The notes under the pieces are model-generated. The model searched no databases, had not been told where the DNA came from, and saw nothing but the letters and a program-made list of their open reading frames with translations. A stretch of DNA of 63,955 bases, the filler included, from Hausera hauseri (taxonomy: Eukaryota), in assembly GCA_046269625.1 (NCBI GenBank). It is 10 parts of 10 records of this genome, joined end to end, with 100 filler letters (N's around TTAATTAATTAA, not from the genome) between each part and the next. Parts side by side here need not be neighbours in the genome. Positions count along the whole stretch, not along the records: positions 48,729 to 52,790 come from JBJURY010785757.1; 9 more parts are not named here. One strand, given 5' to 3'. The position numbers were made by a program, and so were the translations under genes. Below are positions 22,855 to 63,955 of this stretch, in pieces (position 1 is the stretch's first letter; each line of letters begins with the position of its first letter).

Positions 22855-24726
22855 GAAATGCATCAATTGAATTTAGTATCAAAGGCTCATCATTTTATCA
22901 ACAAGCATGAGTCATTTATTCTTCAAAATCAGTGCAAGTTTCGCTCTGCTCAAGAGTCTTTTGTTAATGGTAATTCATCGGTTTATTTGGAAGAAATGTA
23001 CAATTCTTGGTTAGAAAATCCATCAAGTATTCATAAATCATGGGATGTTTATTTCCGACAAGTAAACAAAGGTGCCGGAATCGGTTAGGCATACATTGCG
23101 CCTCCGAACATTGTTTATGACAGACCATCAATTTTGAAAGTTGCTCCAATCACTGCCTATGGCAACTACAAAAGGTGTTTCGTTGGTCGATGCAGTTAAT
23201 GAGAATTCAATTGAAGATCATTTGGCTGTGCAGGCTATTATTAGATCATATCAAATTCGAGGACATTTCGCTGCTTTGAATGATCCATTGGGAATTGATA
23301 TTATTCACGATTAACCAAAAAATATAGTCTATGCTAATATTTGTAAAACTGTTGGTAAACCCCATTTGGATAAGGTCTTTCGTTTACCAAAAACAACACA
23401 TCGGTGGAGAAGAGAACGAACTAACACAGAGAAATTATTCATCGATTAGAAAACGCATATTGCCGACATATTGGCGTTGAATATTTTATTAATGATCTCA
23501 GCGAATGTGATTGGATATGAAACAAGTTTAACACCTCGTATTTTAAAATTCACCGATGATGAAAACGACTCACGTTGGTCCGATTAATTCGTTCAACGTG
23601 ATTTGAAGATTATTTGGCTAAAAAGTGGAGCTCCGAGAAACGTTTTGGACTTGACGGTTGTGAAGTTTTGATACTAGTAATAAAAACGGTTATTGATACA
23701 TCCAGCGACTTAAGTGTTGAAAGTTTTAATATTGGAATGCCACATAGAGAGCGGTTAAATGTGTTAGCAAATATATGTCGTAAGCCATTGGAGCAGATAT
23801 TTTGTCAATTCGATTCAATTTTAGAGCCAAACGATGAAGGAAGTGGTGATGTCAAATATCATTTGGGAATGTATCATAAAAGAATAAATAGATTAAATAA
23901 CAAAATGATCAAAGTTCCAATAGTAGCTAATACTAGTCATTTGGAAGCCGTGGATCCAGTTTTAGCAGAAAAGTCGTATGCCGAACAATACTATAGTAAA
24001 GACAAAGATGGAAAGAAAGTGCTTACTATTGTTCTTCATGGTGATGTTGCTTTTGCATGCCACGGAGTTGTTTTCAAAACGTTTCATTTGAGTGATTTAC
24101 CGAGCTATACAACTCACGGCACGATACACAGTCGTTAATAATCAAATTTGATTCACAACTTATCCTCCAGTGACTCGTTCATCGTCGTATTGCACTGATG
24201 TGGCGAGGGTTGTAAATGCATCAATATTCCATGTGAATGCCAATGATCCTGAAGCAGTTTTAAATAATATATCGGGAAAATTGTTAGTTTTCCACCGGAT
24301 AATTTCAGTTTGCATTCTGGGTTGAAACGAACTTTGAAGGAACGTGAACAGTTAGTTTAAGACAGAATGGCACATTGGGCCCTTGGGGAGGCTTTTGCAT
24401 TTGGAAGTTTGTTGAAAAATTGTATCCATGTGAGACGCAGTGGACAAGATGTTGAAGGAGGAACGTTCTCTCATAGGCAGTGTAGTGCATGATCAGGATC
24501 GTGATCTTGTTGTACATGTTCCCCTTAACAATCTTCATTCTGGACAAGTTGAATTCTCCGTTAGCGATTCGTCTTTTAGTGAATATGCTCTATTAGGTTT
24601 TGAACCCGGGTTTTCTCAAACCGACTCGAATGCCTTAGTTTGTTGGGAACCTCAATTTGGAAAATTTTTCAAACAATGTCCAATGTGTAATTGATCAATT
24701 TGTTGCATCAAGACAGTCGAAATGGT
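22855..24726 (+). pseudogene. OGDH: Mitochondrial 2-oxoglutarate dehydrogenase E1 pseudogene, intronless, internally deleted, 3' truncated
   Basis: [31 protein letters not shown]; [17 protein letters not shown]; [15 protein letters not shown]; [10 protein letters not shown]; SHLEAVDPV; LHGD; after [11 protein letters not shown] it jumps to [40 protein letters not shown]. Many stops and frameshifts. Confidence 0.93.
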
Positions 24727-25473: not shown

Positions 25474-25779
25474 NNNNNNNNNNNNNNNNNNNNNNNNNNN
25501 NNNNNNNNNNNNNNNNNTTAATTAATTAANNNNNNNNNNNNNNNNNNNNNNNNNNNNNNNNNNNNNNNNNNNNAATCATAAAACTCATTTGTGGTTACAC
25601 AACCAAGTCAAAGATGATTTTAATGAACATAAGGATACAATTTCTCAAAATGTGTCCAATACTGTAACAATCTCAGCACCAGTTGTTCACATGGGATTAA
25701 AATGGATCGCGAACAATACCAATGCTCCATCCAAATTAAAAAGTTCCCGAAATCCGAAATCATGCATTAAAAACAAGTG

Positions 25780-28700: not shown

Positions 28701-28990
28701 GGGAATATCTTATCTCGATCCGTTGCATTTCGACCAAAGATGTGTCACTGACGTTACTGGACAGGCGAAAGCGGGCGGAGGCGTGCAAATGGCCACATTA
28801 GCTAAAAAGATCGGCTTCAAAGACTATGGCAGTTCTGAGAGATCGGACTCTTATAATATCTGAAATGAGAAGGATCCAATCTCAAGTTCATTAAATTCAA
28901 ACAGCAGCGCTGCGGAAAAGGGCCTTGACTCAGTGGACGACAAAACAAACGTATTAGAAGATAATGTTGTTAAAATGCCTCGTGGATATC
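25780..28990 (+). pseudogene. Protein-primed family B DNA polymerase (Maverick/Polinton/adintovirus type), decayed
   Basis: GSSYIKL, NDDNMCFKYSI, CKRCLSHF, RDHCH...CDSCNL (endonuclease VII-like), PVIFHNLNGYDSHFI, KGVF, LDSNNLYGWAMS, KNDFEKDQFKLYNNSVFDKTMENIR, YMDIDS, KKVLGKFKDE, terminal DDK. Confidence 0.92.
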
Positions 28991-29239
28991 TTTCATTGTG
29001 GTAATGTTATTTGTTTAGATGTTATTGTTTGTACATGTTGAATAAATGTTTTGAATCAATGTCTTGAGTTTTCATTAAGTAATGTGGAATATGTAACTAT
29101 ATAGGTTAAGTAAATACATTAATCAATAAAATCAATATTTGAAAATTGAATTAATAATAAATTCTCAATACAAACTTTCGATCAATAAATCAAGACAGTA
29201 TATCAATAATTGTATTAATCTGTCATTATTTAAAAATAC

Positions 29240-29508
29240 ATAATACGTGTGGCGTTTGCCTTAAAGAAATGACTGGGAAATATATTCGATTGGCAACGTA
29301 TGAAAAACACAAATTTTGTGTTGGTTGCCTTAGAAGGTGGCTACGACCTAAGAAAATTTGTCCAATATACAGGATGAAATGTGATTATGTCGTTAACCAG
29401 GATGGGAATGATCAGATGTTGTGTGTTGCATTGGTAGGAAGAATAACAATGTACATAGATGATACGTGGGTAGACAGTGATAATAATAGTGACTTAACTA
29501 TTACATAA
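29240..29508 (+). CDS. Small RING-finger-like ORF downstream of PolB (degenerate)
   Basis: CGVC...KHKFCVGCLRRW...CPIYR; C3HC4-like spacing with two ligands lost. Confidence 0.6.
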
Positions 29509-31359
29509 TTGCTGTATTTATGTTTTTTATTGTTATATTAAAACATGTTTTATACAAGTCTTTTGTTTTAAAAAGCAAGTATTTAAAACATTTATTTGGT
29601 AGAAACATAACCTTGATACAAAGCTAAAACTTATTATANNNNNNNNNNNNNNNNNNNNNNNNNNNNNNNNNNNNNNNNNNNNTTAATTAATTAANNNNNN
29701 NNNNNNNNNNNNNNNNNNNNNNNNNNNNNNNNNNNNNNAGGTTGAAATTGAAGCAGCTGCAGCAACGCGAACATAAAAAGAAAAGCGTTAGTGAAATGCT
29801 GTAATCCTATAGAAAATATGCTTAAAACTCAAATCATCGTTATTGAATAAAAGTATATCGCGAGATACTGAGTAGAAAAGTTTCAAGATGGCGGCCCTAC
29901 AGCACAATAGCGTTCAATGCAGGATAATGAACCTAAATGAACCTGAACGCAACATCCGTGGAAGGGAAGCGTGAAGGGACAAACTACCTCCCACTTGTAC
30001 TTTGCTTTCACTCGAACAGAAAAACAAGGCCAAAAAAAGCCTTTCAAAACAAACCCCAAAAACTGGAAGCCACGACTCACAACATTTATATGCGACTTTA
30101 GGAAAAAAACAACCCCAAAGTCGCTTATAATTAGCGTACTTGGCAACTACGGTATAAAAAATCCAGTGCTCTATATATATATATAAAATCGGAGTTGCAA
30201 AATGGCGGCCGCATGTATAACTGGAAGTTGATGAAAGTAACTATTTTAAATAGTCCATAAACCATCAAATGCAATACTAAACACTTTAGGAAATTTAAAT
30301 ATGAACTACACTATTTTTCAGCCAATTACTTTTGTTTTTACTTCTTCATTTCAACTTAAACAGAAACTTACCTCCACAGCTTTGCAGAATTCAGTGAATT
30401 TGAAGAACAAATCAGACGATTGTGAATCTCTGATCAGTAAACACTGTTCACTCCGTTTTTTTTTTCTTTTTAGCCAAAAAAAAACCACTAAGTGTGAGCT
30501 CACGAAAAGTTCGTTGAAACAGAACAAAGCCTGTTACAAACTGATTCAACTTTTGGCGCACAAACCTTTACGAAACCCATTCCACCAATGAATTTAAAAG
30601 AAAAATTCACATGACTACGAACAACCAATAAGCATTCAGTTCCTCACAGACGTATCAAGGCAAGCTAAAGGAACGCCGAATCCTTCCTAGACCAGTAGAC
30701 CGGAAGTTAGCAGCTGTGAATTGGGACAGCCTTCACGGTTACGTCAGCATATGTCCTGTCGCCTAGCAACCGTGACGACGCTCAGAAAAAGGAAGAAAAG
30801 AGCTCAAAATCTTGTTTGTACTGCTTTTTATTAATTCTAGAGGAAATACAGGAACTTTGTCACCGCTGACACCATATTTTCTATCTTCTGCTGACAGAAT
30901 CATACCCAGGTAACTTGCTTTTTTTTGGCTACAAAACTTTAGAGGAATATATGTTAACTTCAGCTGGTTTCATGGATAATTTCAGTGACTGACCGACTAA
31001 TGTATTAACTTTATTAACTTGTGAATAATAAATAAATTTTAAATTTATCTTATTAATAATTTAATGAAAATTAATATATTATAATCTTTAACTTATCTGA
31101 AATTTAGAATACAACATAACATTTGCCAATACTGTATTTTATTTTATAAAATCCATTGGTACAAAAAGTGCCTGTAAAAATGTTAAAAACAGGTTTCTTT
31201 CATTTCTTTTACTAATAAAATAGCACTGAAGTGTTTTCATTGAGCATCACAATATTTACCTTAAGCCTCATTATTATGATAACGCTTTGATATCTTATAC
31301 AAAATTAAATCTTAAACTAATGTTTTTGTTTTTCTCTACATTTCCTGAACCAGACCAGA

Positions 31360-37585: not shown

Positions 37586-39380
37586 CCTTGAAGGGAAAGA
37601 ATTTTAGAACAAAGGAACAGACACGAAAATAATAGGCAATTATATCTGCGGACAACAATTAATGCTCATGTCATACCTGGTTCTTCTTCTTGTTTGGGTT
37701 CGGACAGGTCCACTGTGATCCCGATGCTCTTGGCAAGTCAAGAAGCTTCCATTTTAGTGTCCGGTCTATGTGTTTCCCGGCGGTTTGAGTGCGCGTGAGA
37801 CATGGGATCGAGTACTGGCCGTCATCGATATAACGCCAATGCCCCATGCAACAGTCTAGGCGTTTCTGAGCAATGATCTGAGCCTTGTCATTCAGTAGGA
37901 TAGGGGAAATCAGGATAAGCGGCCAACGGAAACATCCCCCTGCTCGAGTGCATGTTGAGTCGGCAGAGCCTTGTCTGTTCCGAAATGAAAACACTAAGAG
38001 CCCACGACTGCACAACCGTGAAGGTAGGATTGTCTTAACTGACACACCTGGAACTTTCAGCCATTACTCACCTCAGACGTTTTTTAACTCTTTATTCATT
38101 TATGACACGAGACTAATGTAAAGTGTTGTATAGTTAATGTTTGTTGTCTTTCATTTTCCTTCCAGGTTTTCACACTAATGGTTTATTATTGTTGTTGTTG
38201 TTGTTCGATGTCCACATCATCGAGCGTCAACTCTTCTGGATGCCCAAGAAGGGCTATTGCAGTCCTAAGAACGACTATGGAGGAGGGTTGTTAAGCTTTC
38301 GTTCTGTCCCGGTGGTGTCTAAGGTGGACCAAGANNNNNNNNNNNNNNNNNNNNNNNNNNNNNNNNNNNNNNNNNNNNTTAATTAATTAANNNNNNNNNN
38401 NNNNNNNNNNNNNNNNNNNNNNNNNNNNNNNNNNTTCTCACCCCGTGATTATGTGCTCTCCTACCATTGGCCACTTTTCCTTATCCCGATGACGTGTTCT
38501 CCTCCCATTGGCTTACTTCCTTCCCTGGCGAGGAAGGGGGTTTGGCTCGTAGTCCTCACTTCCACCTACTAACATGAACTCCAATGTGATTTAGAAGTTG
38601 AAGAAAACATTAGCAAAATTTAATCCAAAACGCTAGAAAGTTTAGCAGCAAAAACAAATAATTATTAAATATCAAATACTTGCACAGACAAATATTAGTG
38701 TTAAATAAATTTTCATTAAATGTTTAGAAAATACAGAATTGTGAAATTGTCAAATAGAATAGTCTGATGTATTGCTGGACTATTTGCTTAATTTTGAAGA
38801 ATTAGTTAAAAATTTATGATGATAATAACTAGTGAGCAAATCGATCCAATATGATTTTAGGAACGCGTAGTTGAAATTTGGAGGAAAACTCTGAATAAAC
38901 AGCCAAATTGAATGAATCTGAAATTTTGTCGATGGAGTAAACTGAGCAACTTTGACACAGTTTCGAGAATTTTGGTATTAGGGAAATCTGAATTAAATCT
39001 CAATTGCAACCATGATTTGGACTGTCTAAATTTTGTAACGCACGCACGCTTTCGAAAATGCGTGAAATAAAGGGGCACCTGGACCGAAATTTGTATCTGA
39101 AAAGAGATTAAACAAAAATGCCTGAATGTTTGTGGCCAAATATGAAATACTACTACAAAACTTAGGAATAACAAAAACGTTTCGAATTTTCAATTGGTAA
39201 ACTGCGAATTACTGTGGTCGTTCGTAACTTTCTTCAAGAAAAATGATTTAAATCGTAGTACAAATTTTGGATAATATCTGTTCACTTTGGATCATATCTG
39301 TTCACTATCACTGCTAATGATACTTGAAAAGAACGATGTCTGATTCTGAGTATTGCGAGTGTATTAAAACACCAGGTTTC

Positions 39381-42300
39381 GAGTGTTGTGTGATGCCAAG
39401 AAGAGTCAAAAAGAAGAGATGAAGAAGGTGAAGGAGGAAGAGAGATTGTTGAAGACGAAGGATTGATTAAAGGTGTAGTGGCGGATAAAGGAAGAAAAAG
39501 AGAAGTTAGAGTAGAGGTTGGAATTGAATTGTGTGAGAGAGTGGAAGTAGAAGATGAAACAGAAGTATTAGTAGAGAGAGGAAAAAGGATAGAGAAAGAG
39601 GTAAAGAGAGGAGAAAGTTGTAAAGCGGAAGTAAAAGGAGTAAAATATGATGTGTGAGGAGAAAGGGCCGAAGATGAGGAAGGTGTGGAAAGAGAAGGAG
39701 AGAGAGAAAAGATGGCGAAAAGGTAAAAAACTGAGGAGAGCAAGAAGATGGAGAAGGCGCAGGAAAGTAGTTGAAAGGTGGTGTGTAAGAGGTTGAAATG
39801 ATGAAAGGGGCAGATGGAGAGATTGGTGAAGTCGAGGTGGTGTTTGATGGAGGAGGTATTGCGAAAGGCGAAAGCAGGTTGTTACTAGGGGATGGAAGAG
39901 GTGTGAAAATGCTTGACGGTGCAACAACGGATGGGAAAGAAAAGGCTCAATTGTGAGAAGAAATTAAAGTGGAAGTTGTGGGAGAAAACGTAAGGGAAAG
40001 TGGATTAAGACATTGAGCAGAGATGGAAGGTGAATTGTTGGATTGCTGCGCGTCATATAAAGATGTTGGTGGAGAAGTGACTTCGATGGGAGACGTATCG
40101 TCGATGAAGAAGGCTGGCTTAGCATTGTTGATGTGAACTGCTACTTCTTTGTCGTCTTTGAGAATGATGATGTTGTGGGAGTGTAGGCGAATTACTTTCT
40201 AAGGGATGAAATACTGAGGTTGTAAACCACATGGCGTCTGATTTTTTAACCAAACGAACTTGGCAGTATATAAATCGTCGGGTATGTAGGGTTTATTTGC
40301 GTGTAACAGTCTACAAAATTAGTTTTTGCTGATCTCAACGAAGTGACTCTGTGCCGCTTGTATGGTTTCGTCTGTAGGAGTACTGTCCAGCTCAGTCAGC
40401 TCGAATAATGATCTAATAGAAGTGTCAAATAATGCTTCTGCATGTGAACAGCCTGTAGAAGTTGATGGTGTTCCGCCAGCCAAGCAGAACGTACAGAAGG
40501 AGTGTAGTCCAATTGCGATTGGACTCAGAGAGGATTTTGAGAGACGTTTTCATCGATCGGTGAAAGCATTCGCGAAGGCCATTCAATTGGGGATGATATG
40601 GTGACGTGTGAATGTGGTTAATTCCCAAAAGATTGACAAGAGCTTTAAACAGGTTGGATTTGAACTGTGGGCCTTGGTCCAAAATGATGTGGCGAGGTGA
40701 TCCAAACCTGATAATCCGAGTACGGATGAAAACGTCTGCGATGGTTTCTGTGTTGGTGCTGCAAAGCGGGACAGCCTCTGGCCATCGCGAGGAACGGTCC
40801 ATTATGGTGAGGATGAACTTATGGCCGTTGTTTAAGGGTAGTGGGCCTACAAGATCAATGTGAACAGATTCGAAACGAGACGTGCAGGAAAAATGAAATA
40901 GTGATGGCTTTAGGTGCTTAGTAACTTTGTATTTTTGGCATGCCACACACTGCCTAACTCATGCATGCACGTCAGAGCGCATCGACTGCCATACTACTTG
41001 GCGTTGTAAGAGTCGAAAAGTGGCCTTGGCACCGGGATGATGCAACGAATGGACGCTGTGGAATGCTTTTTTTTGAAGCGACTCAGAAAGAATGATTTTG
41101 GGATTATTAGGTTTGGAGGTGTCAAAGGCCACACAATCGATGGTTTTGCAAGATTTAAAAGATTTAAAGATGTCAGGAGGTGGCTGGTTTTGCTGAAGTT
41201 TGGATTGAGGAAAACTTGGTGTAAAATCAATCGAGCTGACCGATCGGGACAAAAAGTCAGCTACTAAATTGTCGACTCCGTTTAGGTGTTTAGTTTGAAA
41301 ATTAAATGTGGAAAAATACGATATTTGCCTCTTATGACGTGGAGAAGGCTATTTCGTGATGAGAATTTGAAGCAAGGGCTTTTGATCCATTTGTATGATA
41401 AAAGTTCGTGCGGTTATGAGATGTTTGAAGTGTTTTACGGCAAGGACCATTGCAAACAAATCTCTGTTAAAGGTGTAATATCTTTGCTCTTGTGCTGTGA
41501 ATTTTCGAGAAATGAATTCCAGTGGCTCATGGGATCCATTTTAACTTGGAGGACAGCACCTGCAGCTGTTGTGGATGCGTCGGCGGTTAAGAAAAGTTCT
41601 GCATGGGAGTCTGGGTAGGCAAGAATTCCCAGTTTTTAAATTGTCTTTGAGGTGATCGAAAGCGTTGACTAGCTTGGCAATCCATTGAATAGGCTGTTTC
41701 TTCTTGCCAGAGCTTAATGATGTAAATGGAGCGGTTAGATTGGAACAGTGTGGAACATACCTATGAATAAAGTGCAAGGTTCCGAGAAAAGAACGCATCT
41801 CTGTTGATGTACGTGGTAGCTATATGTTTTTGAGCTGTGTTATGCGGTCTGGCTGAGGTGAATGTCCGGAGGAGCTAATGACATGTCCTAGAAAGTTAAC
41901 TTTATGTTGAAAAAAGAGCATTTGGCGAAATTAATTTGCAAATTGTTTTGGTGCAAGCGCTGGAAGATTAAACGTTAGTGTTCACAGTGCTGCTTAGAGG
42001 AGGATGATGTAATTAGGATATTATCAATATAGGGATAGGCAAAGTCTAAACCTGATAGGACTGTATCGATGTGCCTTTGGAAAGTCTGGGAAGCGCTACG
42101 GAGTCCAAAAGGCATGAAGAGGTATTCGAAAAGGCCGAAAGGTATAATGACAGCCGTTTTCGGAATGTGTGCTGGGGCCACCGGAATTTGGTGGTATGCT
42201 TTCTGTAGATCGATGCAAGAAAAGATGGTCGCATCATGGAGCCTGTGAAGGATATCGTTGATTAATGGTAGAGGGTAGGCATCCATTATTTTTATGATGT

Positions 42301-44233
42301 TAAGTTGGCGGTAATCACCGCACGGGCGAAAGGTGCCATCTTTTTTTAAAACCACATGTAGTAGTGAAGACCAGGGGGATTTGGATCTTCTGATTATGCC
42401 TGATCTTTCCAGTTCGAGAAACACAGCCTGCACTGTCTATCTGCGACGATGCGATAGCAGACGGACCTTTCGACGTATTGGTCTTTGATGTGCTGTTACT
42501 ATGTGATGAAAAGTGGATTGAGGTGGTACGAATGATTTGTCCTTCTGCAACAGACGCGTGCAGGAGGATGAAATGTATTGCTGTAGATCAGAAGGCAACG
42601 ATGAAAAATTATCCGATGGTGTCGATGCACCGTGACTGGATAAAGTTGAGGTATGAGTTATGGACGAGGTGTTGTGACTGGGTGGTATTTGGTGCAGGAT
42701 GTTCGTGTTGAAGATGGTGTTGGCAGCTGTGCTATTAGTAATAGGTTCCACGCAGTTGGCAATATCGTATTTGTCACCGTAGTAAAAATGTCTGTATAAA
42801 GTATGATTATAAAAATAATTTAAATCGGAAGTCGCTTGCTTCAGTATTGACTTACTGGACGCGATCGCCTGGGTGGTCACCAAAATGCTGATAATTTGAT
42901 TAAGATTATTTCCGCACTTTAAGGAACATTGTTTTCAATCCACAAGTAAATTGTAGTGGGACAGAAAATCTGAACCCAGTATAGGTGTGCGTACATTAGC
43001 TATTGTAAATTTCCATGTGAAGGTGTTTGGGAGGTGTGGAAAAGTGAAAGTTAATTTGGTAACTCTAAAAATCTGTAAGGGTTCACCGGACGCAGTAAAC
43101 AGTTGCTTTTTTGATGTGAAGTTGTTCTGAATGTGTTGTGCTGGTAGTAGTAAGGAGATTGCTGAGCCAGTGTCTATAAGAAAGTTAATGATTGCTTCGT
43201 TGGAGTAATGACTGCTGCTTCCAACGTGAATACAGCAAAAGAAATATGTCGGCTGTCTTTTTGCAGGTTGTTGCCTTTGCAAGGACTTGCGTGTGTCATA
43301 GCGGCAAAATTAGTTGTTTGTAGATGGTGAGTTTGGCCTACTGTTTTGTGTGAATTTTGTAATGTTGGTTTTATTGTGTGTGTTGTAGGTACAGCCAGGT
43401 AGGCATTTGAGTGCTTTTGTGCCAAATTTTGAATGATAGATGCAAACGATGTTGCTCGTATGGTAATCAAGGGAATAGAATTTACAACCGATGCAGCACT
43501 TCTGAGCATTATTGCCAAATTTGCTATGATAATAGCAAATAGATGACCGCTCGGGCGAAGGCGACCGTCTTTGAAGTTGACTAAATACATTAGAGGAAAC
43601 AGCTCTAGAAAAATCCCGTCGAGGCAGAGTTAATTCGTTTAATTCTTCGTTTATGTTGTTGACTGTGTTCTGTAACTTTTTATTTTCTGTGCGTAATTGC
43701 GCAATTTTTTGTTGCAGAATTGCATTTTGTTGTTGTTGATCTGTTGCTGATGCTGCAGAGATAGCTGGTGCTGTGTGTGAGTGCAGTACTTCGTATGCTT
43801 TGTCTGCCAATTCGACTAGCTTGTCTTATTTGAAGGGGCAATGCATCTAGAAAGTAGCGGCGAATAAGTTCTGGGCTATGCTCCGATGTCACGCCAAGGG
43901 TGTTAAGGTGAGACAAGGATGTACGTAAGAATTCAGAAGGCTTCTGAAGGCCCATGGCGTTATCGTTGAAGTACATTTGAATGATGAAGCCGATTGACGG
44001 CTCAGTAAGCTTGAGAACGGCATTGTAAAGTTGAGTATATGGTGTGAAGTTGGTGGGTCTCGTCCAGTAAAGAATTGATATCGGTATTCTGTATAATGAC
44101 ATTTTTTTCGACCATTTTAGTACTGGCAAATAAAGGTTTAGATGGCATAAATGTTTCAGTTGTTTCCGGAGTTGGCTGACAAGAGTTTGACACCAATCGA
44201 GAATTACGGAATTGACTATTAACTTTATCGTTC
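39381..44233 (-). mobile_element. Gypsy conventional family, copy A3 (near-complete gag-pol plus pyrimidine-rich tail), decayed
   Basis: Gag (KPSEFLR, two C(Y/I)YHSKFG..A.KC..GC motifs), FLIDTGS, CGDYRQLN, MPFGLRSASQTFQR, YIDN, RNase H, integrase; tail homologous to about 1800-2524. Confidence 0.95.
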
Positions 44234-44333
44234 NNNNNNNNNNNNNNNNNNNNNNNNNNNNNNNNNNNNNNNNNNNNTTAATTAATTAANNNNNNNNNNN
44301 NNNNNNNNNNNNNNNNNNNNNNNNNNNNNNNNN

Positions 44334-47300
44334 TTGAAGACGGATGGTTAAAGGCATTGAAAAGAGTGTTAGAAGACGAAGGAGTGATGACAGGTGTAGT
44401 GGTGGATAAAAAAAGAGTGGAAAAAGTTGTAGTAGGGATTGGAATTGTGTTGAGTGAAAAAGTGGAAAAGGAACATGGTACAGAGGTAGTGGTAGGGATA
44501 GAAGTAGAATGTGTGGAAAATGATGGAGCAGGACCAGGCGCAGAAAAGGAAGGTGGAAATGATGTAGCAATAGATGTATGGATAGCAGGGAGTGGAGGAG
44601 TGAGAAAGGAGGTTGATGTGTCAGTTGGTAAGATGTCGTCGACAAATAAAGCGGGTTTTAAGTTGGTAATGTGTACTGTAAGGTCTTTGCCGTTTTTAGA
44701 GATGATGGCGTTGTGTGAGTGCAGCTGTAACAGTTTGTAGGGCCCCAGATACCTGACTGAAAACCGCAAGGCGCTTGATTCTTTAGCCATACGAATTTTG
44801 CCGAATACAAGTCTTGGGGTAAGTATGTTTTGTCTTTGTGAAGTATTTTACAGAACGAATCTTTGCTGACCTCGACAAAGTAATTTTGCGCCGCCCGTAT
44901 TGTTTCGTCCGTGGGAGTGTCGTCTAGAGCGGTTAATTCGAATAATGATCGTACAGGAGCTCCGAATAAGGCTTCAGCAGGTGAGCATCCTGTAGAAGTA
45001 GACGGAGTGTTCCACCAGCATAGCAGAACGAACGGAAGAAGATTTGTCCAACTAGTGTTGGACTCTGCGAGAATTCTTAGTGACGTTTTCAATGTTCGGT
45101 GGGAACGTTCTAGAAGCCATTCGATTGAGGATGATAAGGCATAGTATGTATGTGGTAAATCCCCAATCGGTTAACAAGGGATTTGAACAGGTTAAACTCA
45201 AACTGTGGACCCTGGTCCGTGATGATGAAGCGAAGTCATCCAAACCTGCTAATCCATGTGCAAATAAAAACGTCAGCTATAGTTTCGGTATTTGTGCTCC
45301 TCAGAGGGATGGCTTCTGGCCATCGCGAGGAACTGTCCATCATGGTGAGAATGAATTGATGTCCGTTGTCTGGAAGAAGAGAGCCAACGATGTCGATATG
45401 CACGGATTCGAATCGCGTGTGCAGGGAAAGTGGTATAATGGTGGCTTTAAATGCTTAGCTGTTTTGTATTATTGGCAAGCCACACACTCCTTAGCCCATG
45501 CCTGAACATCAGAACGCATTGACGGCCATATTGCTTGTCGATGGAGTAAACAAAAAGTGGCTTTAGCATTAGGATGGTGTAGTGAATGCACGTTGTGAAA
45601 AGCTTTCCTTTGCAATGATGGTGCTAGAATTATTACTGAATGGTCTGGTTTGGAGGTATCTAAAGCCACACCGTCAACAATTGTGCATTACTTAAAAGAC
45701 TTAAGCATGTCTTCAGGTGGCTGGTTCTGTTGAAGTTGGTCTTGTGTAAAATCGGAGAAAAATTAATCGAACTAACCGACCTAGATAAAAAATCAGCAAC
45801 TAAATTGTTAACGCCGTTAATATGTTTAATATCGAAGTTAAATGTCGATAAGTATGATATTTGTCGCTTTTGACGTATGGAGGGGTGTTTCATGGCCATG
45901 GTATTAAGTAAGGGCTTGTGATCAGTTTGTAGAGTGAAATGACGAGCGACAAGTAGGTGTGAGAAATGCTTTAAAGCGAGAACGATGGCCAATAGTTCTC
46001 GATCGAACGTGGAATATCTGGTTTCAGGTGCTTTTAGCTTGCGAGCGGAAAATTCTAATGGTTGATTTTTTCCCTTGTAGATCTGGTGGAGTACGGCGCC
46101 TACAGCAGTAGTTGACGAGTCTGTATTAAGGATGAGTTTTGCATTAGGCTTGGGGAAAGCTAGAATATCGACGATTTTGTTGCCTTCGCGTAGCTTATTG
46201 AATTTGTCAACCAATTCAGGTGTCCACTGGATTGGCTAATGTTTTTTGCCGCCGCTTAGGTGTGCAAATGGTGCTGTCAATTCGGAGCAATATGGTACAT
46301 ATTTATGTACAAAGTGTAGTGTGCCAAAGAAGCTACGCATTTCGGTAGTTGTACGTGGCAATTGGATATTTTTAAGAGCTTCGACTTGGTCTGATTGGGG
46401 AGAATGACCGTCTGGCGTAATAACGTGGCTTAAAATGTTAATGCGCTTTTTGAAGAAATGACATTTATCGAAATTGATTTGGAGATTATGGTGGTTAAGA
46501 CGTTGGAATATTGCACGGTGTTTTTCGTGTTGTTTGGCAGAAGATGAAACGACTAGAATTTCATCGATATAAGGGTGTGCAAATTGGAAATTGGAAAGAA
46601 TTGAATCAATGTGGCTCTGAAAAGTTTGTGCGGCATTCCTCAAACCGAATGGCATAAATAGGTATTCATAGAGACCAAAAAGAGTGGTTACTGCGGTTTT
46701 TTCTGTACTCGGGTACCACCAGTATTTGATGGTATGCTTTAGCTAAATCAATGGTCGAATAGATGGTGGTTGAATTAAGACGATGCAAGATATCCTTGAT
46801 GAGTGGTAAAGGGTACGCATCCATAATAGTCAAGTTGTTCAGCTGTCGATAGTCACCCCATTGTCTAAAAATACCGTCCTTTTTTATACAACGTGTAAAG
46901 GTGATGACCAAGGAGATTTGGAACGGCGTACTATTCTGGAACGTTCTAGTTCAAGAAATTCAGCGTCTACGGCCTGCCTACGACGAGGTGACAGAGGTCG
47001 TACCTTTTGGCGTATAGGACGTTGATGTTGTGTAACTATGTGGTGTAAAGTACTGTTTGCGAGAGTAAACGTACGGTCTTTTTTAAGTACACGTGGACAT
47101 GATGTGTTGACGAATTGCTGTAAAGTTGTAGGCAACTGTGAAAGATTTGGTGGAAGTGGTGAAACGGCTTGAGTAGTAGCGGATGCAATTTGTGAGTTGT
47201 TTGGTGATGTGCGGTCAAGTGGTATTTCGTGTAAGATGGTTGAATTGAAAATGGTGTTGAATAAAGTGACTTCGCCGAATGAACCAACGTTGGTGGTAGT

Positions 47301-48628
47301 ACCACACTTATCGACATCAAATCTCAATCAAATATCAGTGTTATTATTTAAAAATTTACGGATTGATATATTATTATGGAAATTGGAATTATTTATTAAT
47401 TTTTTTAAGATTGACCTCCGCATCCCGGTCGACTGGGCGGTAGTCGAAATGTTATTGGCATGCCCAGAAATGTCACAAGTGATGCCGTTTCTCAAACATC
47501 TCTGACTGCAGTAAACCAGTAAATTATAGTGTGAGAGAAAGTCGGATCCTAGAATTGCCGTCTGGACGTTAGCGACTGTGAACGTCCAGTGGAAAGATGA
47601 AAAAAATTTGGTAAAGTGAAAGATAATTTAGCCAAGCCAGAAATGTGCAGCGGTTGGCCTGAAGCAGTGTATAAGGGCTTAATTCGGAATGGAGAATTTT
47701 GTACAGGAAAGGTTTGTGGTAATAAAGAAATCGCTGAACCTGTATATATGAGGAAGTCAACGGATTGCGTTGTAGGAGCGGTGATTTCAGCCTTTAGAGT
47801 AAAAACAGCAAAAAAGACGCGTCGGCGTTCAGAAAGTGAAGTAGTGCCTTTGTCAGAGTTTGCCGTGACTTTTGGCGGCGAACTTAGTTTTTTTTAAAAG
47901 GGTGAACTAGAACGACTAATAGAAGGAAAGGCAGTACGTACGTCGTTCGTACTTGATTTAAAAGTGCAGCCTGGAATGCATTTACGAGCCTGATTTTTAA
48001 ACCGTGCATGGTAGATGCAAACAACGGTGTTCGAGGAAAAATTTTGTTATAAAATTTGCACCCTAGGCAGCACTTCTGAGTATTAGTGTTGAATCTGCTG
48101 TAGTAATAGCAGATCGACGAAAGCAAATGCGATGGTGAGCAGTTTCTAGACGCAGAACGAACGCGGTCAGCGGCAAAACACCATCGGCGGGACAGAGACA
48201 GTTCGTTTAATTTATTATTAATATTGTTGATTGTTGAATGTAGTGCAATATTTTCAGCACGCAGTTGATTAAGCTGTTGTTCTATGTATGTATTATTGGT
48301 TTGAATATCGTTAGCTGCAACTGCTACTGAAACTACTGGTGGAGAATTTACGTGTAGGACATCGCGTGTCCTATCGGTTAATTCGGCCAATTTCTCAAGC
48401 AGTGTGGAGTCCTCCACCACGGTAAGTAGGGCTCGGATTTGGATAGGTAACGCATTAAGGAAATAGTGGAGCAGGAGTTCTGGGTTGTGTTCTTTAGTGA
48501 CGCCGAGGGTATGTAGATGTGCCAAAGAGGTGCGTAAGAATTCTGATGGTCGTTGGGTATCTATAGCATTGTCGTGGAAGAAACGTTGTATGTTCATGTC
48601 CGTGGGATGTTCTGTGCTCTTAAGAACG
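44334..48628 (-). mobile_element. Gypsy conventional family, copy B2 (gag-pol), decayed
   Basis: RPSEFLR Gag, degenerate protease (YTGS), GDYRQLN, MPFGLRNAAQTFQ, YIDE, YSTFDRELLA, TDHKPL, integrase, GPYKL, Ser/Thr/Pro tail. Confidence 0.95.
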
Positions 48629-48728: not shown

Positions 48729-50915
48729 GAATAATATCTCAGCCTTGTAGCCTCGGCTCTGCATACCGGGCAGGTCGTCTTCCCATTTTTCAGGGTCCAC
48801 GTTTCCAAACAGTATCGGCAGTACTAGGACTACGAATCCTTGGTATAGGTCTGCATTGCAAACGGGGCATTCTTCTTTTTCAGCAGCATCAATATCCACA
48901 AGATTCTCGTCCACTTCTATTCTATCAAACACGAGTCCTTTTCTGTATTGGTACAAATATCCGTACAATCTCTTTTGATTGGGGTCTATTGAACTTTTTC
49001 TTGGATTGTCAGATACTGCTACTAGGGTTCATTCTACTATTTCTTGTTTGTCCAGATCGGGTATTCCAGGTTTCTTATATTGTCTTTTTAACTGAATTCT
49101 GACTTGGGTGTCCACGGTAATTGTTAACCTGTTAATGCCACTTTTTGATTGAAATATTGGGGCTAGGTATCTTCCTATGGTGTGATCTTCTCTGGCATAT
49201 CCGTTTCCACTCACTATTCTTCTTAGAACGGTGGACACGTAAAATACAGCCTCTTTGATTTTTCCTCTGCTGTAATATTCGGCCACAACGAGGATTTTCT
49301 TGTACTCTTTCACTTCGCCAAATTCTGTAACTATAATCGGGGTATCTTCCTCCCAGTTCTTCTTAAGAACGTTAACTTCTGATTTAAGAGATTTGGATTT
49401 TGTAAATTCCAACGGTTTTTCACTGTCCTCTTTTTCTTTCGATTTGATATTCTTTTCTGATTGTTCATGGGTTCCTCCGGAATCGGTTTATCTATCGTTG
49501 ATCTTTTTTCGTCTATTTGACCTTTGCTGGTCTTGCTTCTCTTTTTATGGATATAATCCAGGAAGGAGGTCTTCGTCTTTTGCCTTTTCGGTTTTTCTGA
49601 AGCATCGTATTTTATCGTCGGTTCTTCTTGAGCTTTACTAGTTGAAGGCTTCTGTTGATTGTGGATGGTTATTCTAATTCGGTTCGGTCCTTGGGGCTCG
49701 ATTTGTCGATAACCTGGGTATTCACTAAACCCTTTTCGGAATTTTTGTATCAGCGATTTAGGATTATTGTCAGATATCGCATTCTGTACAGGTTCTCTAG
49801 GTTTCGATTCGTGATCCCATCGTAAATGGTCGTAAACATTCTTGATACATTTTGTTCGCTGGCTCGCCGTCATTAACTTTGGGAATTTAAATCCTTCACA
49901 ATTCATGGCTTCGAGCATCATCTTGAACTGTGATTCAGGCGACGCCGAGGCTGGAAGTAGACATCCTCTTTTCCGCATTAGGGTATTTTCTACTTGACTT
50001 ACGACAGCTGGGTTTTTCGGCTTATTTCTCAGATGCCGGCTAGATATTCTTATCTGATTCCTAATTGTTCTAGTGCTTCGTGGAATCGGAATCCAGTAAC
50101 AACGTATCCATATAAACATTGACTGATATCTTCTTGGATCTCCAAAAAGTATTTTCCTTTTTCAAGTTGAGGTTTTGTAATTCCAGTAACGTCGGGAAAA
50201 GTATCTTTGATTCTAACTCTAGGTGCAATTATTTTGTTTAAGACTTCTTCTCCGTTTGTATTCCTAATAGAGATTTCGATTTGGAAGTACCACCCGTTAT
50301 CCTTTCCCCATAATTCACCTCTACTATCCGGGAATTTCGGCCATCTGGGACTAATATATATGATTCCCCATTTTGTTCTACTTCGTCTTCTAAGGGCTTT
50401 TGTATGTGTACCAACGGGGGTAATGGCTTCATTAGTTCGGTTCGCCACGTCATTTCTATCATAATTTTGGTCGGAAGGTCCGCGATCCGGAATTCCAATG
50501 CATAATCCATGAGATTATAACAACATAGCTCGTAAATACTAAATTTCCACTGTTGTCCCTTTTGTGTACTCCAGGATTGTTCTACGATCCTGTAATGAAT
50601 TTCTCCATCAGTGACATGTATGTACGATTGCTGATGTATCGGCTCATATGGGATCAGATCTATCAAGTGATACACTCGTACATCCTTTGGACTCCTTATG
50701 GCATATAATCGAACCAATCTATTTTCTTCTAAACCCCATTTCAATCCGTTCGGTATTTTACTTTCTTGGGTAAACTCTAGGTAATTGGTATTTTTCAGAT
50801 TTTCCCCGATTTGTCGATATAAACTTTTGGATAGGGGTTTGAGGACTGTAACATGCTGCTGCAGGAAGTCATCGATATCGTGATGGACTGATGGATTCTT
50901 CACCTTCTCGGCCAT
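48729..50915 (-). pseudogene. Frameshifted accessory ORF containing a REX4/ISG20-like DEDDh exonuclease-like domain (about 50330-49820)
   Basis: IEISIRNTNGEEVLNKIIAPRVRIKDTFPDVTGITKPQLEKGKYFLEIQEDISQCLYGYVVTGFRFHEALEQL parallels REX4 (VSIVN..G.VVLD.FVKP...V...T.VSGI......A..F...Q.....L.G..LVGH....DL..L). Overlapping ORFs in successive frames; CPVC near the contig end. Confidence 0.65.
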
Positions 50916-50925
50916 ACTTACTCTG

Positions 50926-50947
50926 CTGAAATAAAAATAAAGGTTAA
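50926..50947 (-). promoter_or_regulatory. Putative splice acceptor just upstream of the accessory ORF ATG (50915)
   Basis: TTAAC (branch-point-like) CTTTATTTTTATTTCAG| ten bases before ATGGCC. Confidence 0.4.
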
Positions 50948-51020
50948 TCCTAAGACAGATCATCGTTTTGAAACAAAACATTTTCTCTGTCTGATGATAG
51001 GATAACCCGATCTGTAGTCG

Positions 51021-52790
51021 TCAGGTTATGCTATCATAAGGTCCGTCTTGGTTACATTTTCCCCATTTACCTCCCTTTCGATTTTTACCGCGTTTATTAC
51101 AATTTTTGGAGACTAGAAAAATTATCGCTGTTAATATGACAAGAACGGAAATTGACACACTAAATACAGTTATTATTGGTAAATTACTCGGTTCGGTAGA
51201 ACTTTGTGTCGTAAACACACTTAGAGTATTAATATCCTTATACGTCATTACTTCAAGTTTATTACCAAGAGTTCGTACTGTAAGAGTTTTAGGGTTCTTA
51301 CCTTCCGCGGTCATTTTGATTATGTACTCGTGTTGTGGTCGTAACGATTTGCATACCGTTCCCAAACCATTTCTTTTTAGAATTACAACTTGGTTGGTGT
51401 GCAAGGTGCGACATTCAATTTCGACGTCCTCTTTTAATGTTTCTTCAGCGTAGAACAGAATTCTATCGCTCTTTGTTAGGATTTTGACCGGTATACTTCT
51501 TGGCATTACGTCTGTAGTGATGATCGTAATACTACGAGTTGTACTCGGCGTCGTGGAGGGCTTTCCCGTAGTGTTCGGAAGTGGAAGTTTCCATATTTCG
51601 TTATTTGGGAGATATCCTCTTAAGAAGACACTTTGTTTACCCTGATAAATGTCGTACAAATCAAATCGTAGTTGGTACCTTTGTCTTAGTTGTATTACAC
51701 AGCATACGGTGGGGCGTCTCTTCGCCAACGAACAATACGCCGGTCTGGGAATAGAAGTGTTCAATGGCGTAAGCTGGACAGAAATTTTTTTGTCTTCCGG
51801 TACTCCGAATTTGGTCTCGATCCAAATGCATTTGTTTCTTAAGTCCTTGTGAATTCCAACAATGTCGTCATCTAAAAGTCTGTTAATCGGATTGGTGCTT
51901 CGAATTATTTCGTCCGTTTTCGCTTGATTTGCGTCCTTTTGTTGTGGCATTCGTATTGTGAGCTCTGAAGCTACGATGGCTTGAGTCCCAAATTTATAGG
52001 AATAAAACAGCTGGAAGCTATATCTATAGACTTTCCCGAAATCTATTTTACAGCATCTCCTGTGGTGTCCGTATGGAAAATCACATAATTTCATTTCATC
52101 TCCAGTAGTTATAAATGTTATCTGAAATCCTATGTGTCTCTGAATAGGTTGGTCTGATTCAAACCATGCACATGGCTTTCCCCAATCCATATCCCGTATT
52201 CTAAGTGTCTGTAAATTCTGGATATCTTTTTGTTTTTCGGTTTTAGCGCTCGATTTCACCGTAGGTATATACGAAGCGATTAATGATAAGGCTAGGACTA
52301 TTTGTACATAAGATATTGGTCTAGTCACTATTGATGACGTCTTCTTTTCTTTATTTGTTTTGCTCGAACGTAGATTGTAGCGTTTGTCTGGTCTTATCTC
52401 TGTTTTGACTACCCTTTGAATTGATGTGACCTCTTCTTTACCATTCTTGTTTATGTAAACCGTAGTTGGCGTAGTTTTTGTAACTTCATAAGGTCCTCTA
52501 CCTGTCCTGGTAAGCTTAAGAGATGTGCCTTTTTTCGCCACTGGGTAGTGCACGTAAACCCAATTTCCAGGTTCCAAGTCATGCGGTTTAGCCCTCTTGT
52601 CGTATTGTCCTTTAAATTGTTCTTGGTATTCTTTAGATAATTCTTTGGCTATTTCCCAGCATTTCTGCAATCTCGATTGTAGTACTTCAACGAAATTTTG
52701 CTCTAAATCTTCCGTTCTAGTTGTATATGGAATCAATCCTAGGTCTGTGGGCAGTACAGCTTCTCTACCGTACATCATAAAAAATGGAGT
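51021..52790 (-). CDS. Integrase C-terminus fused in frame to a predicted type I membrane protein
   Basis: Uninterrupted 585-aa ORF: IN tail (GPYEV), signal-like VQIVLALSLIASYIP, two 4-Cys units, Thr/Pro linker, beta-rich FN3-like unit (LRPQHEYIIKMTA), TM LPIITVFSVSISVLVILTAIIFLV, basic cytoplasmic tail ending YDSI. Confidence 0.8.
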   Translation of the reverse strand, partial: TPFFMMYGREAVLPTDLGLIPYTTRTEDLEQNFVEVLQSRLQKCWEIAKELSKEYQEQFKGQYDKRAKPHDLEPGNWVYVHYPVAKKGTSLKLTRTGRGPYEVTKTTPTTVYINKNGKEEVTSIQRVVKTEIRPDKRYNLRSSKTNKEKKTSSIVTRPISYVQIVLALSLIASYIPTVKSSAKTEKQKDIQNLQTLRIRDMDWGKPCAWFESDQPIQRHIGFQITFITTGDEMKLCDFPYGHHRRCCKIDFGKVYRYSFQLFYSYKFGTQAIVASELTIRMPQQKDANQAKTDEIIRSTNPINRLLDDDIVGIHKDLRNKCIWIETKFGVPEDKKISVQLTPLNTSIPRPAYCSLAKRRPTVCCVIQLRQRYQLRFDLYDIYQGKQSVFLRGYLPNNEIWKLPLPNTTGKPSTTPSTTRSITIITTDVMPRSIPVKILTKSDRILFYAEETLKEDVEIECRTLHTNQVVILKRNGLGTVCKSLRPQHEYIIKMTAEGKNPKTLTVRTLGNKLEVMTYKDINTLSVFTTQSSTEPSNLPIITVFSVSISVLVILTAIIFLVSKNCNKRGKNRKGGKWGKCNQDGPYDSIT

Positions 52791-57764: not shown

Positions 57765-58330
57765 AAATGAAAGATTTTCATTTCACTTTTACCACTCTCC
57801 AATTACCAATTTTTTTATTCTGGATGAAACATTTAGATAATTTTGCAGAAATAAGACCGATTTATTGTCATGCCGAAGGACAAACACTAGCCGCTGTTAT
57901 TCTTTTGGCCCAGTTGGGTAATAGACACATCCATATTTGTCATGTGTCAAGAAAATACAAAATCGAATTAATAAAACTAGCAGAGTCTAGGACTGCGTGT
58001 AACATGTGAAGTTGCTCCACATCATTTCTTTTTAACTGAGAACTTTTTATCATCTGGTCTCAGTAATGTAAAATCATCTTAATCAACCGCAGAAGATACT
58101 GAAAGTCTTTGGAACAATTTGCATGTCATTATTTGTTTTGCTAGAGATCATGCTGCACATACCCTTGTTGAAAAGCAATCTGCTAATTCCCCTCGTGCTT
58201 TTTCGGGATTAGAAACAATACTACAATTACTGCTAGATGCACATCGGCAAGAACGCATTACACTTAAACAAATATCAGAATAATTAAGTATAGACCCACA
58301 ACATATACTTAATTTACCACCATCTGAGCC
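57765..58330 (+). pseudogene. CAD: CAD dihydroorotase-domain fragment, intronless, decayed
   Basis: WMKHL...PIYCHAEGQTLAAVILLAQL...HICHVSRK, EVAPHHFFL, LWNNLHVIICFARDHAAHT.EK, FSGLETILQLLL. Confidence 0.85.
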
Positions 58331-58339
58331 ATGTTTAAA

Positions 58340-59050
58340 ATGCAACACAATGTGCCATACAACAGCGCGTACGAATATGAACAATCAATCATCTAGAAAT
58401 CATGCCATTTGTCCTTTACATATCAAACAGCAACGAGTCATCGGCATCCACTCTGAAGATAATGCGATATTGGAAAACGATGCTGATTTTGAAACTCTGA
58501 TTGCGAAATCCCATTTTGTAGATTTGACAAACTGTGAAAGATCGAAACGAACCGGCGCAACTGACAATCGGGCGAAAGAAGGAATTTCGATTAATTCCGG
58601 CTTGTTAGCACTGGCAAACTTAGTCTCTACCCTTCGAGATCCGTCAACAAAGTATACACATATCCGCAAAACGAATTCGAAAGTAATTAGACTGTTACAA
58701 AATTCACTCGGTGGAAATTCTCAAACGGTTATAATAGCTCGTATGTCTCCACCTGATTGTGACTTTCTCGAAACGCTGCATGCTCTTCATTACACTAATC
58801 GTGTAAGAAATATCAAAAATCGAGTTATTGTAAATCAGGATAAAACAAGCAAACAATTATCGGCCATGAAGCAACAAACTGAAATACTGCAGGCGAAACT
58901 TATGGAGTATAAACGGGACCGAATTATGGGTAAACGGCTTGCAGAAAGTGATGAGAGTGGTTTAAGCGATCCTTGTACAGAAAATAATTTCTTACAAACT
59001 AAAAATCATACAGTCCGATCACGAATTAAAGCTTTGTCGAGTACAATTGA
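58340..59050 (+). pseudogene. KIF21: Kinesin-4 (KIF21-like) motor C-terminal half and neck fragment, intronless, decayed
   Basis: MNNQSSRNHAI, AKSHFVDL...ERSKRTGAT..RAKEGISINSGLLAL, RLLQNSLGGNSQT, ETL..L.Y.NR.RNIKN.V.VNQD, LMEYK, ENNFLQT; catalytic motifs degraded (DLAGSE to DLTNCE). Confidence 0.88.
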
Positions 59051-59417
59051 TGTCACTAGGGGAGGAAAGGGGAATCCCGTATTTTCGTGCCCGCCGCGCC
59101 GCGGCGAAGCCCCGACCGCCAACCCTGCGCCGGTCGGTCGGGGGGGCTTTCGACGTCGGTCCCAGGTCACGCCCTCAGGCGTGCCACAACTTTCCCCAAT
59201 TTGTTTTTTGTAATAATACACATACATACGACCCACACAAAATATCTACATATTCCTACCCTTCAGACCTGCATCTCTTCTCTTGGGTTTTCCGATTTCT
59301 TTCTTACTCACCATGGTGCTGTCATCCACCTTAACGAGATTTTCTCTTTTCCCAATCAAACTCGTTTCGATGTACATCCCGGTATCTGTGGTGGAATGAA
59401 TTTCTCACCAACTGTCG
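59051..59417 (+). mobile_element. Insertion truncating KIF21: GC-rich LTR/leader-like segment plus ubiquitin-like leader and Gag-like start
   Basis: Abrupt GC jump at TGTCAC (59051); hairpin at about 59106-59150; then FSDFFLTHHG...VHPGICGG-MNFSPTV, paralogous to 25255-25473. Confidence 0.5.
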
Positions 59418-63169: not shown

Positions 63170-63580
63170 TAATAATGGACAAAGTCAACCAAAGGAGACT
63201 CTATCGTGGTATTCACAGTCAGCTTGGTGTTTCTATGGCCGGTATATCAAAAATTGTAAAGCAGTTCAAGAATACCGAGGATTTGAAGAATAAATTTGGA
63301 GGAAGACAATTCTTTCCAAAAGGGTAGAACGAGCTTTGGTGATGGAAGTAGGAAGAAATCCAACAGTAACGATGGGTTTGGCATTCATATTACCAGTCAA
63401 ACTGTGAACAATAATCTAGTAAAATTAGGTTTTCGTAATTCATCCATGGTTAAAAGGCCTCTTCTGACAGCACAACCCAGAAAGCTGCGCCTTGCTTTTG
63501 CTAAACGTTATGTTAATCAACGTGTTGTATTTACCGATGAGACGATGGTTTCCATTACAAATAATGCCAAACATCAAAGA
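63170..63580 (+). mobile_element. Tc1-like transposase remnant
   Basis: HTH YRGIHSQLGVSMAGISKIVKQF; ITSQTVNNNL..GF....KRPLLTAQPRKLRLAFAK...VVFTDE (first catalytic D); truncated. Confidence 0.8.
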
Positions 63581-63955
63581 GAACATGTATTTAATCTACT
63601 TAACTCGTTTTATATGGTTCGTGTATTCTATGAAAATAATTAAGTATTTATTTTATTATATTTCATATGAATGTTGCAGCAAATTCATGCAGCGTCCTAT
63701 TTGCAATTATATTAAATTTGTTTGAAATTTGTTGTGTTTACGACTTTTTGAGGGTATTGTAGAATTGAGCCAATCGGAATTTAGATCTATGGCATCCAAT
63801 CAGAACACAAATATGACGAAATGGTGCATGTGTGATATCATTTGGACATATCTGTCTTCTGATTGGATGCCACACGCATACATTTGAATTCTTATTTGCT
63901 GTAGGTAATGCGTGGGTGGATTCAACATTTTTCTCCACTTTTCACCAACATGCAT

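Follow-up and report, generated by a model that had tools for sequence, protein, structure and literature searches.

A candidate accessory gene joining a predicted dead DEDDh exonuclease fold to a RING finger behind the pol of a Ty3/gypsy retroelement in Hausera hauseri

The DNA analyzed here, a stretch of 63,955 nucleotides from Hausera hauseri (GCA_046269625.1; the window), consists of ten short contigs separated by N50-TTAATTAATTAA-N50 linkers, and features lying across a linker are not neighbours. One of these contigs (48,729-52,790; 4,062 bp; JBJURY010785757.1), on which all features are read on the minus strand, harbours the end of the integrase open reading frame (ORF) of a Ty3/gypsy long terminal repeat (LTR) retroelement, followed by a second, long ORF, here called the accessory ORF. 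The accessory ORF has its first ATG 105 nt after the stop of the integrase ORF. A first-pass annotation had described the accessory ORF as retroelement cargo, encoding a protein of more than 700 codons with an apparently inactive REX4/ISG20-like exonuclease domain of the DEDDh type. Its length was borne out, as the ORF spans ~729 codons, but the reading frame is broken by four frame changes and a stop.

Two relatives of the encoded protein were found among sequence representatives: P0001 (870 amino acids, intact; E 1.8e-13) and P0002 (333 amino acids, stopping inside the nuclease domain; E 5.7e-13). Five colinear blocks of P0001, spread over the stretch that starts at 50,882 and reaches the end of the contig, match the window (tblastn E 2e-147); the pieces are therefore the remains of one ancestral ORF, now broken. 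The layout of P0001 comprises an N-terminal domain (~56-230), a pseudo-DEDDh domain (231-420), a basic linker, a second conserved domain (~601-740) and a RING finger (747-790), and the intact accessory protein is about 800 amino acids long. The full-length protein cannot be made from the present copy, unless the breaks are assembly errors. The features of the contig are as follows.

51,021-52,790, minus strand: 3' end of Ty3/gypsy pol, 589 open codons, cut by the contig end
52,502-52,482, minus strand: GPY/F motif of the integrase C-terminus (position of the motif)
52,307-52,275, minus strand: weak hydrophobic segment (hydropathy peak 1.71)
From 51,182, minus strand: C-terminal transmembrane helix of the integrase ORF (hydropathy peak 2.88)
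50,926-50,949, minus strand: splice-acceptor-like signal with branch-point-like TTAAC, pyrimidine tract and CAG (no statistical test applied)
50,915-48,729, minus strand: accessory ORF, ~729 codons, running off the contig end
50,367-50,915, minus strand: N-terminal conserved domain, ~175 amino acids, identical to P0001 at 85/172 and to P0002 at 91/170 positions
49,802-50,345, minus strand: predicted pseudo-DEDDh (DnaQ-like superfamily) domain, spread over three frames
50,324-50,304, minus strand: ExoI equivalent VEVNYGE, in the upstream reading frame
50,280-50,053, minus strand: DEDDh core scaffold, 76 amino acids
50,094-50,074, minus strand: ExoII equivalent GFRFHEA
49,873-49,856, minus strand: putative ExoIII MTASQR, placed by spacing only
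49,305-49,801, minus strand: basic linker, poorly conserved (18 of 72 aligned residues identical to P0001 in the part 49,651-49,427)
About 49,444-49,427, minus strand: basic cluster in the linker, aligned and also present in P0001
48,870-49,304, minus strand: second conserved domain, ~140 amino acids, 73/142 identical to P0001
48,761-48,869, minus strand: C3HC4 RING finger, broken copy with a frame change inside the finger
48,869-48,858 and 48,772-48,761, minus strand: two CPVC motifs, RING ligand pairs 1-2 and 7-8
~50,310-50,285, 50,050-50,020, somewhere within 49,700-49,320, and ~48,850-48,825, minus strand: four frame changes
49,031-49,029, minus strand: in-frame stop, inside the second conserved domain

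Profile comparisons place the nuclease-like domain in the DEDDh (DnaQ-like) superfamily by its core, which comprises strands 2-3, the xxGI motif, a helix and the ExoII strand. A domain profile built from the P0001 stretch, P0002 and two window pieces was searched against the PDB at E<=5, and five of its seven matches are DEDDh-type nucleases: DnaQ (6.3e-6), the PolC exonuclease (6.1e-4), ISG20L2 (1.3e-3), SDN1 (4.6e-3) and ISG20 (0.92). NOB1, at 1.5, accounts for the remaining two. A reference profile was made of 13 named phage, plasmid and bacterial DEDDh exonucleases (L001, two of six loci and ten of 50 listed matches); it was seeded from the best plasmid match of P0001, and its scores are not fully independent. 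Aligned with the domain profile by hhalign, it matched at 96.4% over 72 gapless columns. It also ranked the ORF piece 50,514-50,053 first of 1,147 six-frame window segments, with 27.2 bits (E 1.5e-7) against 5.4 bits for the next-best segment, and the scaffold recognised at first pass lies at 50,280-50,053. When the 76-residue core was shuffled 1,000 times, 725 of the shuffled sequences scored, with a maximum of 9.3 bits against 29.3 for the real core. The second-best window match of the reference profile (50,161-49,334, E 0.75) misses ExoIII and was not counted. P0001 furthermore matches PHROG 192 (E 1.1e-4), and in NCBIfam five of its six matches fall on residues 262-359, four of them named PolC/DnaQ and one unnamed, all far under the curated cut-offs. 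In the Atlas, 19 of 30 matches lie in RNase_T clusters (best 0.92), the nearest clusters consisting of eukaryotic RNase_T proteins. The window piece alone matched no Pfam family at E<=1, and the sole nuclease among its six PDB matches was SDN1 (E 0.9). No gap is needed to align the core (strand 2 to ExoII) with ISG20L2 and ISG20, and the spacing fits these enzymes, yet DnaQ and PolC score better; with both ahead of ISG20L2 in the PDB search, the REX4/ISG20-like label of the first-pass annotation could not be established. The domain had also been drawn too long, its supposed extension to 50,450 (50,450-50,345) being part of the N-terminal domain.

All 13 references retain the catalytic D-x-E, D and H-x4-D. 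The ExoI position, earlier called unclear, was found in another frame than the one then read (VEVNYGE). The first strand of both the window and P0001 has N-x-G there, and that of P0002 has N-x-A; an alternative register gives E-x-N for the window and A-x-N for P0001 and P0002. Neither register holds a D-x-E in any of the three sequences. At ExoII, GFRFHEA was confirmed in place of GH....D: the Asp of 13/13 references aligns gaplessly to Met330 in P0001; the window, read in the same register, has Ala there, and P0002 ends ahead of this position. MTASQR is present and lacks an H-x4-D, as had been said, but its ExoIII register is set by spacing only; by this spacing the two ExoIII positions would be Leu395 and Cys400 in P0001 and Met and Arg in the window. 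No H-x4-D or Y-x3-D occurs near the last helix in the window or P0001; the window pieces hold no H-x4-D, and the only H-x4-D in P0001 231-420 lies ~45 residues ahead of the expected place and is not kept in the window. Judged by its ExoI and ExoII residues the domain is predicted to be catalytically dead, in line with the first-pass annotation, and this state is not mere decay of the present copy, because the loss of the ExoI D-x-E and the ExoII Asp is common to the intact P0001.

The dead fold nevertheless appears to have been maintained. Across the three pairs of sequences, identity is 45%, 50% and 58% in the core and 49-54% in the N-terminal domain, versus 25% in the linker; between window and P0001 the core shares 34/76 residues and the C-terminal half of the nuclease domain 24/67. 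Since the core is as conserved as the N-terminal domain, and more so than the linker, we read this as selection on a fold whose metal-binding residues were lost in the lineage. Basic residues past a conserved Pro are kept in the window, P0001 and P0002, and presumably adjoin the former substrate site, a position taken from DEDDh structures.

The accessory protein is predicted to carry a RING finger as well. In P0001, residues 747-790 form a complete C3HC4 RING, with all eight zinc ligands in RING spacing, matching PF00097 with 30.8 bits (cut-off 21) and PF13639 with 29.7 bits (cut-off 27.3); its PDB matches are mostly RING domains of ubiquitin ligases (E3). The window copy keeps six of the eight ligands (pairs 1-2, 5-6 and 7-8), the C-x-H pair being absent in all three frames, and its last 32 codons are identical to P0001 770-801 at 23/32 positions. 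The CPVC motif had been taken for the end of the protein. It is the last ligand pair of the RING; the ORF runs off the contig there and P0001 continues 80 residues beyond the finger. Neither of the two other domains could be assigned: the N-terminal domain gave no usable match in Pfam, the PDB profile search or the Atlas, and the second conserved domain gave no match in Pfam and, for 49,304-49,032, none in the PDB. A cupin-like pattern recognised by eye in the N-terminal domain was dropped, as the Atlas and PDB profile searches gave no support. The basic cluster of the linker is one that we take to resemble a nuclear localisation signal.

The accessory ORF probably belongs to the retroelement, as the first-pass annotation had proposed: it lies on the same strand as the integrase ORF, close behind its stop, with no LTR between. 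No LTR or repeat was found in the 105-nt gap, and no repeat within the contig. The accessory ORF contains no intron across 2.2 kb. Its first ATG stands 10 nt after the acceptor-like CAG, and both homologues' predicted proteins open with a Phe-rich run, as expected from a translated T-tract. These sequence signals suggest expression from a spliced subgenomic mRNA; because of the gap without LTR, the missing intron and the acceptor-like signal, the gene may be compared with other post-pol genes expressed by splicing, such as env and the CERV gene of Cer1. A donor-like GTAAGT, possibly a chance occurrence, is located only 4 nt past the acceptor-like CAG, just ahead of the ATG (50,926-50,916, minus strand).

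That the element is of the Ty3/gypsy type follows from the GPY motif here and from a reverse transcriptase (RT) ahead of integrase in a decayed sister element on another contig of the window; the contig of the accessory ORF itself holds the integrase end only. Residues 1-267 of the integrase ORF share 56% identity with the sister's integrase end (7,348-6,461). The Pfam matches of the sister give the order gag (weak match), zinc knuckle, PF24664 fusion glycoprotein, RT and integrase, whereas its protease and RNase H pieces were recognised by eye only. PF24664, a Monjiviricetes-type, class III-type fusion glycoprotein, was matched at E 1.2e-17 and 2.3e-11, so that a class III-type env stands between gag and pol in the sister, a region outside the accessory-ORF contig. 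Its features are as follows.

6,070-17,786, minus strand: contig of the decayed sister gypsy element, which shares the integrase end and its extension
17,550-16,510, minus strand: gag
16,340-12,862, minus strand: ORF pieces without explanation, ~3.5 kb
About 12,861-10,460, minus strand: class III-type fusion glycoprotein (env)

Within the window this sister, with gag, class III-type env and pol in that order, is the nearest relative of the element of the accessory ORF. The same GAG-ENV-POL layout is known from nematode, bryozoan and flatworm errantiviruses (PMC13524379), and the sister env resembles six Schmidtea gB-type env rows of the supplement to that paper, a likeness seen by eye and not from a computed alignment. 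In both elements the integrase end is extended. In the present element it continues in frame into ~430 amino acids ending in the transmembrane helix, and this extension (52,310-51,021, minus strand; 6,870-6,070, minus strand, in the sister) is probably a membrane protein whose ectodomain is rich in Cys and Thr, present although the sister already encodes env. The integrase ORF (52,790-51,021) matched no Pfam family over the cut-off; a family search with the membrane extension gave a weak CUB-like Pfam match (E 0.18) and nothing useful in the PDB.

Taken together, the best overall explanation, to which we give about an even chance, is a decayed accessory gene behind the pol of a Ty3/gypsy LTR retroelement of an invertebrate animal, probably expressed from a spliced mRNA and encoding, when intact, a nucleic-acid-binding ubiquitin ligase. 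Because a RING was found, the likely function shifts from a plain RNA-binding decoy to such a ligase. In such a mechanism the dead nuclease would grip nucleic acid without cleaving it, be it small-RNA complexes or the RNA or cDNA ends of the element itself. A host ubiquitin-conjugating enzyme (E2) recruited by the RING would then ubiquitinate proteins bound at the nucleic acid. As a result, host restriction or silencing factors would be cleared off the element's nucleic acid. Up to the nucleic-acid-binding E3 the chain is, on sequence grounds, an evenly balanced proposal, while an anti-defence target is less probable and a guess. The proposal in full, a nucleic-acid-guided ubiquitin ligase of an env-bearing invertebrate retroelement lineage whose captured and disarmed exonuclease, a clamp for RNA or cDNA ends, might steer a RING to destroy host silencing or restriction proteins (PIWI or Argonaute complexes, for instance, or end-trimming nucleases), must be called unlikely.

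Several observations weigh against this explanation. The contig ends just past the RING, before any 3' LTR, and the linkage to pol comes from one contig, P0001 and P0002 being without genomic context; the sister contig stops short of the position matching the accessory ORF. All breaks fall within the accessory ORF and the 589 upstream codons are open, a distribution with a chance of 0.03-0.09 for four to six breaks. The clustered breaks may mean that the accessory gene was dispensable, or was lost before pol in a sub-lineage, or they may be assembly errors. Homologues are few. The search of 1.84 billion representatives returned three proteins, two of them true relatives, and the third (P0003, E 9e-4), a bacterial Ig-repeat protein, was dropped as a chance match. 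As to the fold, Pfam RNase_T gave no match to P0001 at E<=0.5, the top Atlas match has 167 features in common versus 170 typical of true family members, and in a global alignment with the DEDDh references the C-terminal half of the nuclease domain reaches an alignment confidence of 0-3. Both AlphaFold models are of low confidence (predicted local distance difference test, pLDDT, 30.9 and 38.2); their lack of Foldseek matches at E<=0.001, and at Z>=5 in a wide search, says nothing on the fold. Finally, the two flanking domains match no family and could carry the main function.

The window holds no second copy of the accessory ORF. None of 204 candidates among longer proteins was a homologue of the window piece, and P0001 50-430 as query found only itself among 2,624. 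In prokaryotic genomes none of 66 pattern matches was a relative; the phage search gave no match and the plasmid search one record, a 3'-5' exonuclease at E 0.06.

The same features can be read in other ways. The protein could be a nuclear regulator like Rev or CERV, translated from a spliced mRNA, with the dead nuclease binding unspliced genomic RNA and aiding its export or stability, and the RING serving multimerisation or self-turnover and not an attack on host defence. Its position after pol, the splice-acceptor-like signal and the basic, nuclear-localisation-like cluster common to the window and P0001 agree with such a role, and CERV also includes a pseudo-enzyme domain (PMC10309623). In its published description, however, CERV combines a dead G-protein-like domain with a Cys loop and has neither DEDDh nor C3HC4 RING, and a RING with all its ligands generally belongs to an E3, which leaves a regulator of this kind a rather unlikely reading. 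In another reading the dead nuclease would be a structural or protein-binding scaffold that does not touch nucleic acid, the protein acting as a virus-type E3 adaptor whose substrate is set by one of the two unassigned domains. The nuclease domain is not strongly basic (26 K+R vs 24 D+E over P0001 231-420), its C-terminal half has diverged past confident alignment, and both other domains are conserved to the level of the nuclease core. The conserved basic residues sit in the core, though, by what we assume was the substrate site. Dead DEDD domains of Maelstrom and EXD1 are described as retaining RNA binding (PMC5408684), as does the PXL domain of PML (PMC13659232), and a pure scaffold is considered doubtful.

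A host gene or pseudogene, with a large exon and its own splice acceptor, could also lie beside a 3'-truncated gypsy insertion. This would account for the acceptor-like signal upstream, for the contig without 3' LTR and the homologues without context, and for the uneven split of the breaks between the two ORFs. It is at odds with the shared strand, the short distance to the integrase stop, the lack of an intron over 2.2 kb and the single 870-residue ORF of P0001; for a conserved gene, the library would also be expected to contain more relatives than these two, though invertebrate genomes are perhaps poorly sampled. We therefore regard a host origin as improbable. Least probable by far is an active nuclease with a rearranged site, built, for example, on the Asn conserved in the first strand and the Glu that stands three residues after it. 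N-x-x-E is conserved in the window, P0001 and P0002, and Maelstrom is reported to cut RNA in some species using non-canonical residues. Yet there is no acid at ExoII or near ExoIII, and a single Glu cannot hold two metal ions.

Other parts of the window contain features of a different kind. At 25,574-29,638 (plus strand) weak Pfam matches mark fragments of endonuclease VII and of a DNA polymerase B of the protein-primed type, presumably Polinton-like, and within them lies a further RING-like stretch (29,248-29,373; tblastn E 0.016). A decayed coding sequence of OGDH (2-oxoglutarate dehydrogenase E1) occupies 22,534-24,138 (plus strand) and is colinear without gaps over 176 residues. Its likeness to the human enzyme (E 4e-78) far exceeds that to the bacterial enzymes, and it is perhaps a processed pseudogene. 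Together with the gypsy content, this likeness indicates an animal host, presumably an invertebrate. A decayed kinesin motor-domain fragment (58,284-59,213, plus strand; PF00225, E 2.8e-33) and a Tc1-like transposase fragment recognised by eye (63,287-63,643, plus strand) were also observed. The regions 1-5,969, 17,887-21,300 and 38,435-48,628 harbour several copies of a different, ordinary gypsy family, 70-90% identical and with a strong strand skew.

It is an open question whether any protein encoded by animal transposons acts against host silencing. The combination of a conserved dead nuclease and an intact RING provides a concrete candidate, and the natural intact homologue allows binding and ligase tests. 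If the RING were inert, or the ORF host DNA, the locus would be merely another piece of odd cargo.

Exonucleases have been cited as known accessory domains of LTR elements (PMC6338049), and the present gene is of this known kind. A similar case is found in rotifers, where ORF3 of Juno and Vesta LTR elements and of Terminons encodes a DnaQ-superfamily exonuclease, likewise carried after pol in Ty3/gypsy elements (PMC5408684). The rotifer ORF3 product is an RNase D-like DEDDy enzyme with residues reported intact (DEED), and no RING is reported for it in the available text; the core described here is DEDDh-type, predicted dead, and joined in one protein with a RING and two further domains. What exonuclease cargo does in LTR elements was not tested in that study. 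Among cellular and phage enzymes the core can be aligned both to the REX4, ISG20, ISG20L2 and SDN1 group and to the DnaQ, PolC and phage epsilon-like group, whose catalytic residues are absent here. The cargo of planarian Burro elements relates to ubiquitination and apoptosis (MATH/TRAF, BIR, BCL2 and SUMO-like domains), but is described as lying upstream of pol, whereas the present ORF stands after it, and no exonuclease-like domain is listed in the available text (PMC6431247). The 'AIR1 RING' motif of Burro1 was considered as a RING precedent and rejected; CCHC gag knuckles are placed at the same end (PMC6431247). The terms 'Exonuclease', 'DEDD' and 'RING' are absent from the main text of PMC13524379. 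Cer1 of C. elegans, in turn, carries after pol the gene for CERV, an accessory protein made from a spliced mRNA and containing a pseudo-enzyme domain; this domain is G-protein-like, the tested role is genomic RNA export, and the word 'exonuclease' does not occur in the available text (PMC10309623). Beside env and CERV, the gene described here would be a third kind of post-pol accessory gene in Ty3/gypsy biology.

A parallel to the fusion itself is offered by PML isoform 1, which unites a RING and a dead exonuclease fold (PXL) within a single polypeptide, also in a setting of retroelement conflict (PMC13659232; PMC10123124), and the pseudo-exonuclease binds G-rich RNA and DNA (PMC13659232). PML is a vertebrate host restriction factor, described as a SUMO E3, with an N-terminal RING in an RBCC arrangement and a TREX/Plex9-like nuclease fold; the likeness is an analogy from the opposite side of the conflict, and no homology is claimed. 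No retroelement accessory protein with a dead DEDDh domain and a RING was found in the literature searched, which left Repbase and subscription papers outside its scope. If the accessory protein were indeed a nucleic-acid-guided E3, it would mirror vertebrate PML and provide a Vif-like accessory function in Metaviridae. The new part, beside the known exonuclease-type cargo of LTR elements, is the fusion of a dead nuclease with a RING, and this fusion holds more interest than the nuclease alone.

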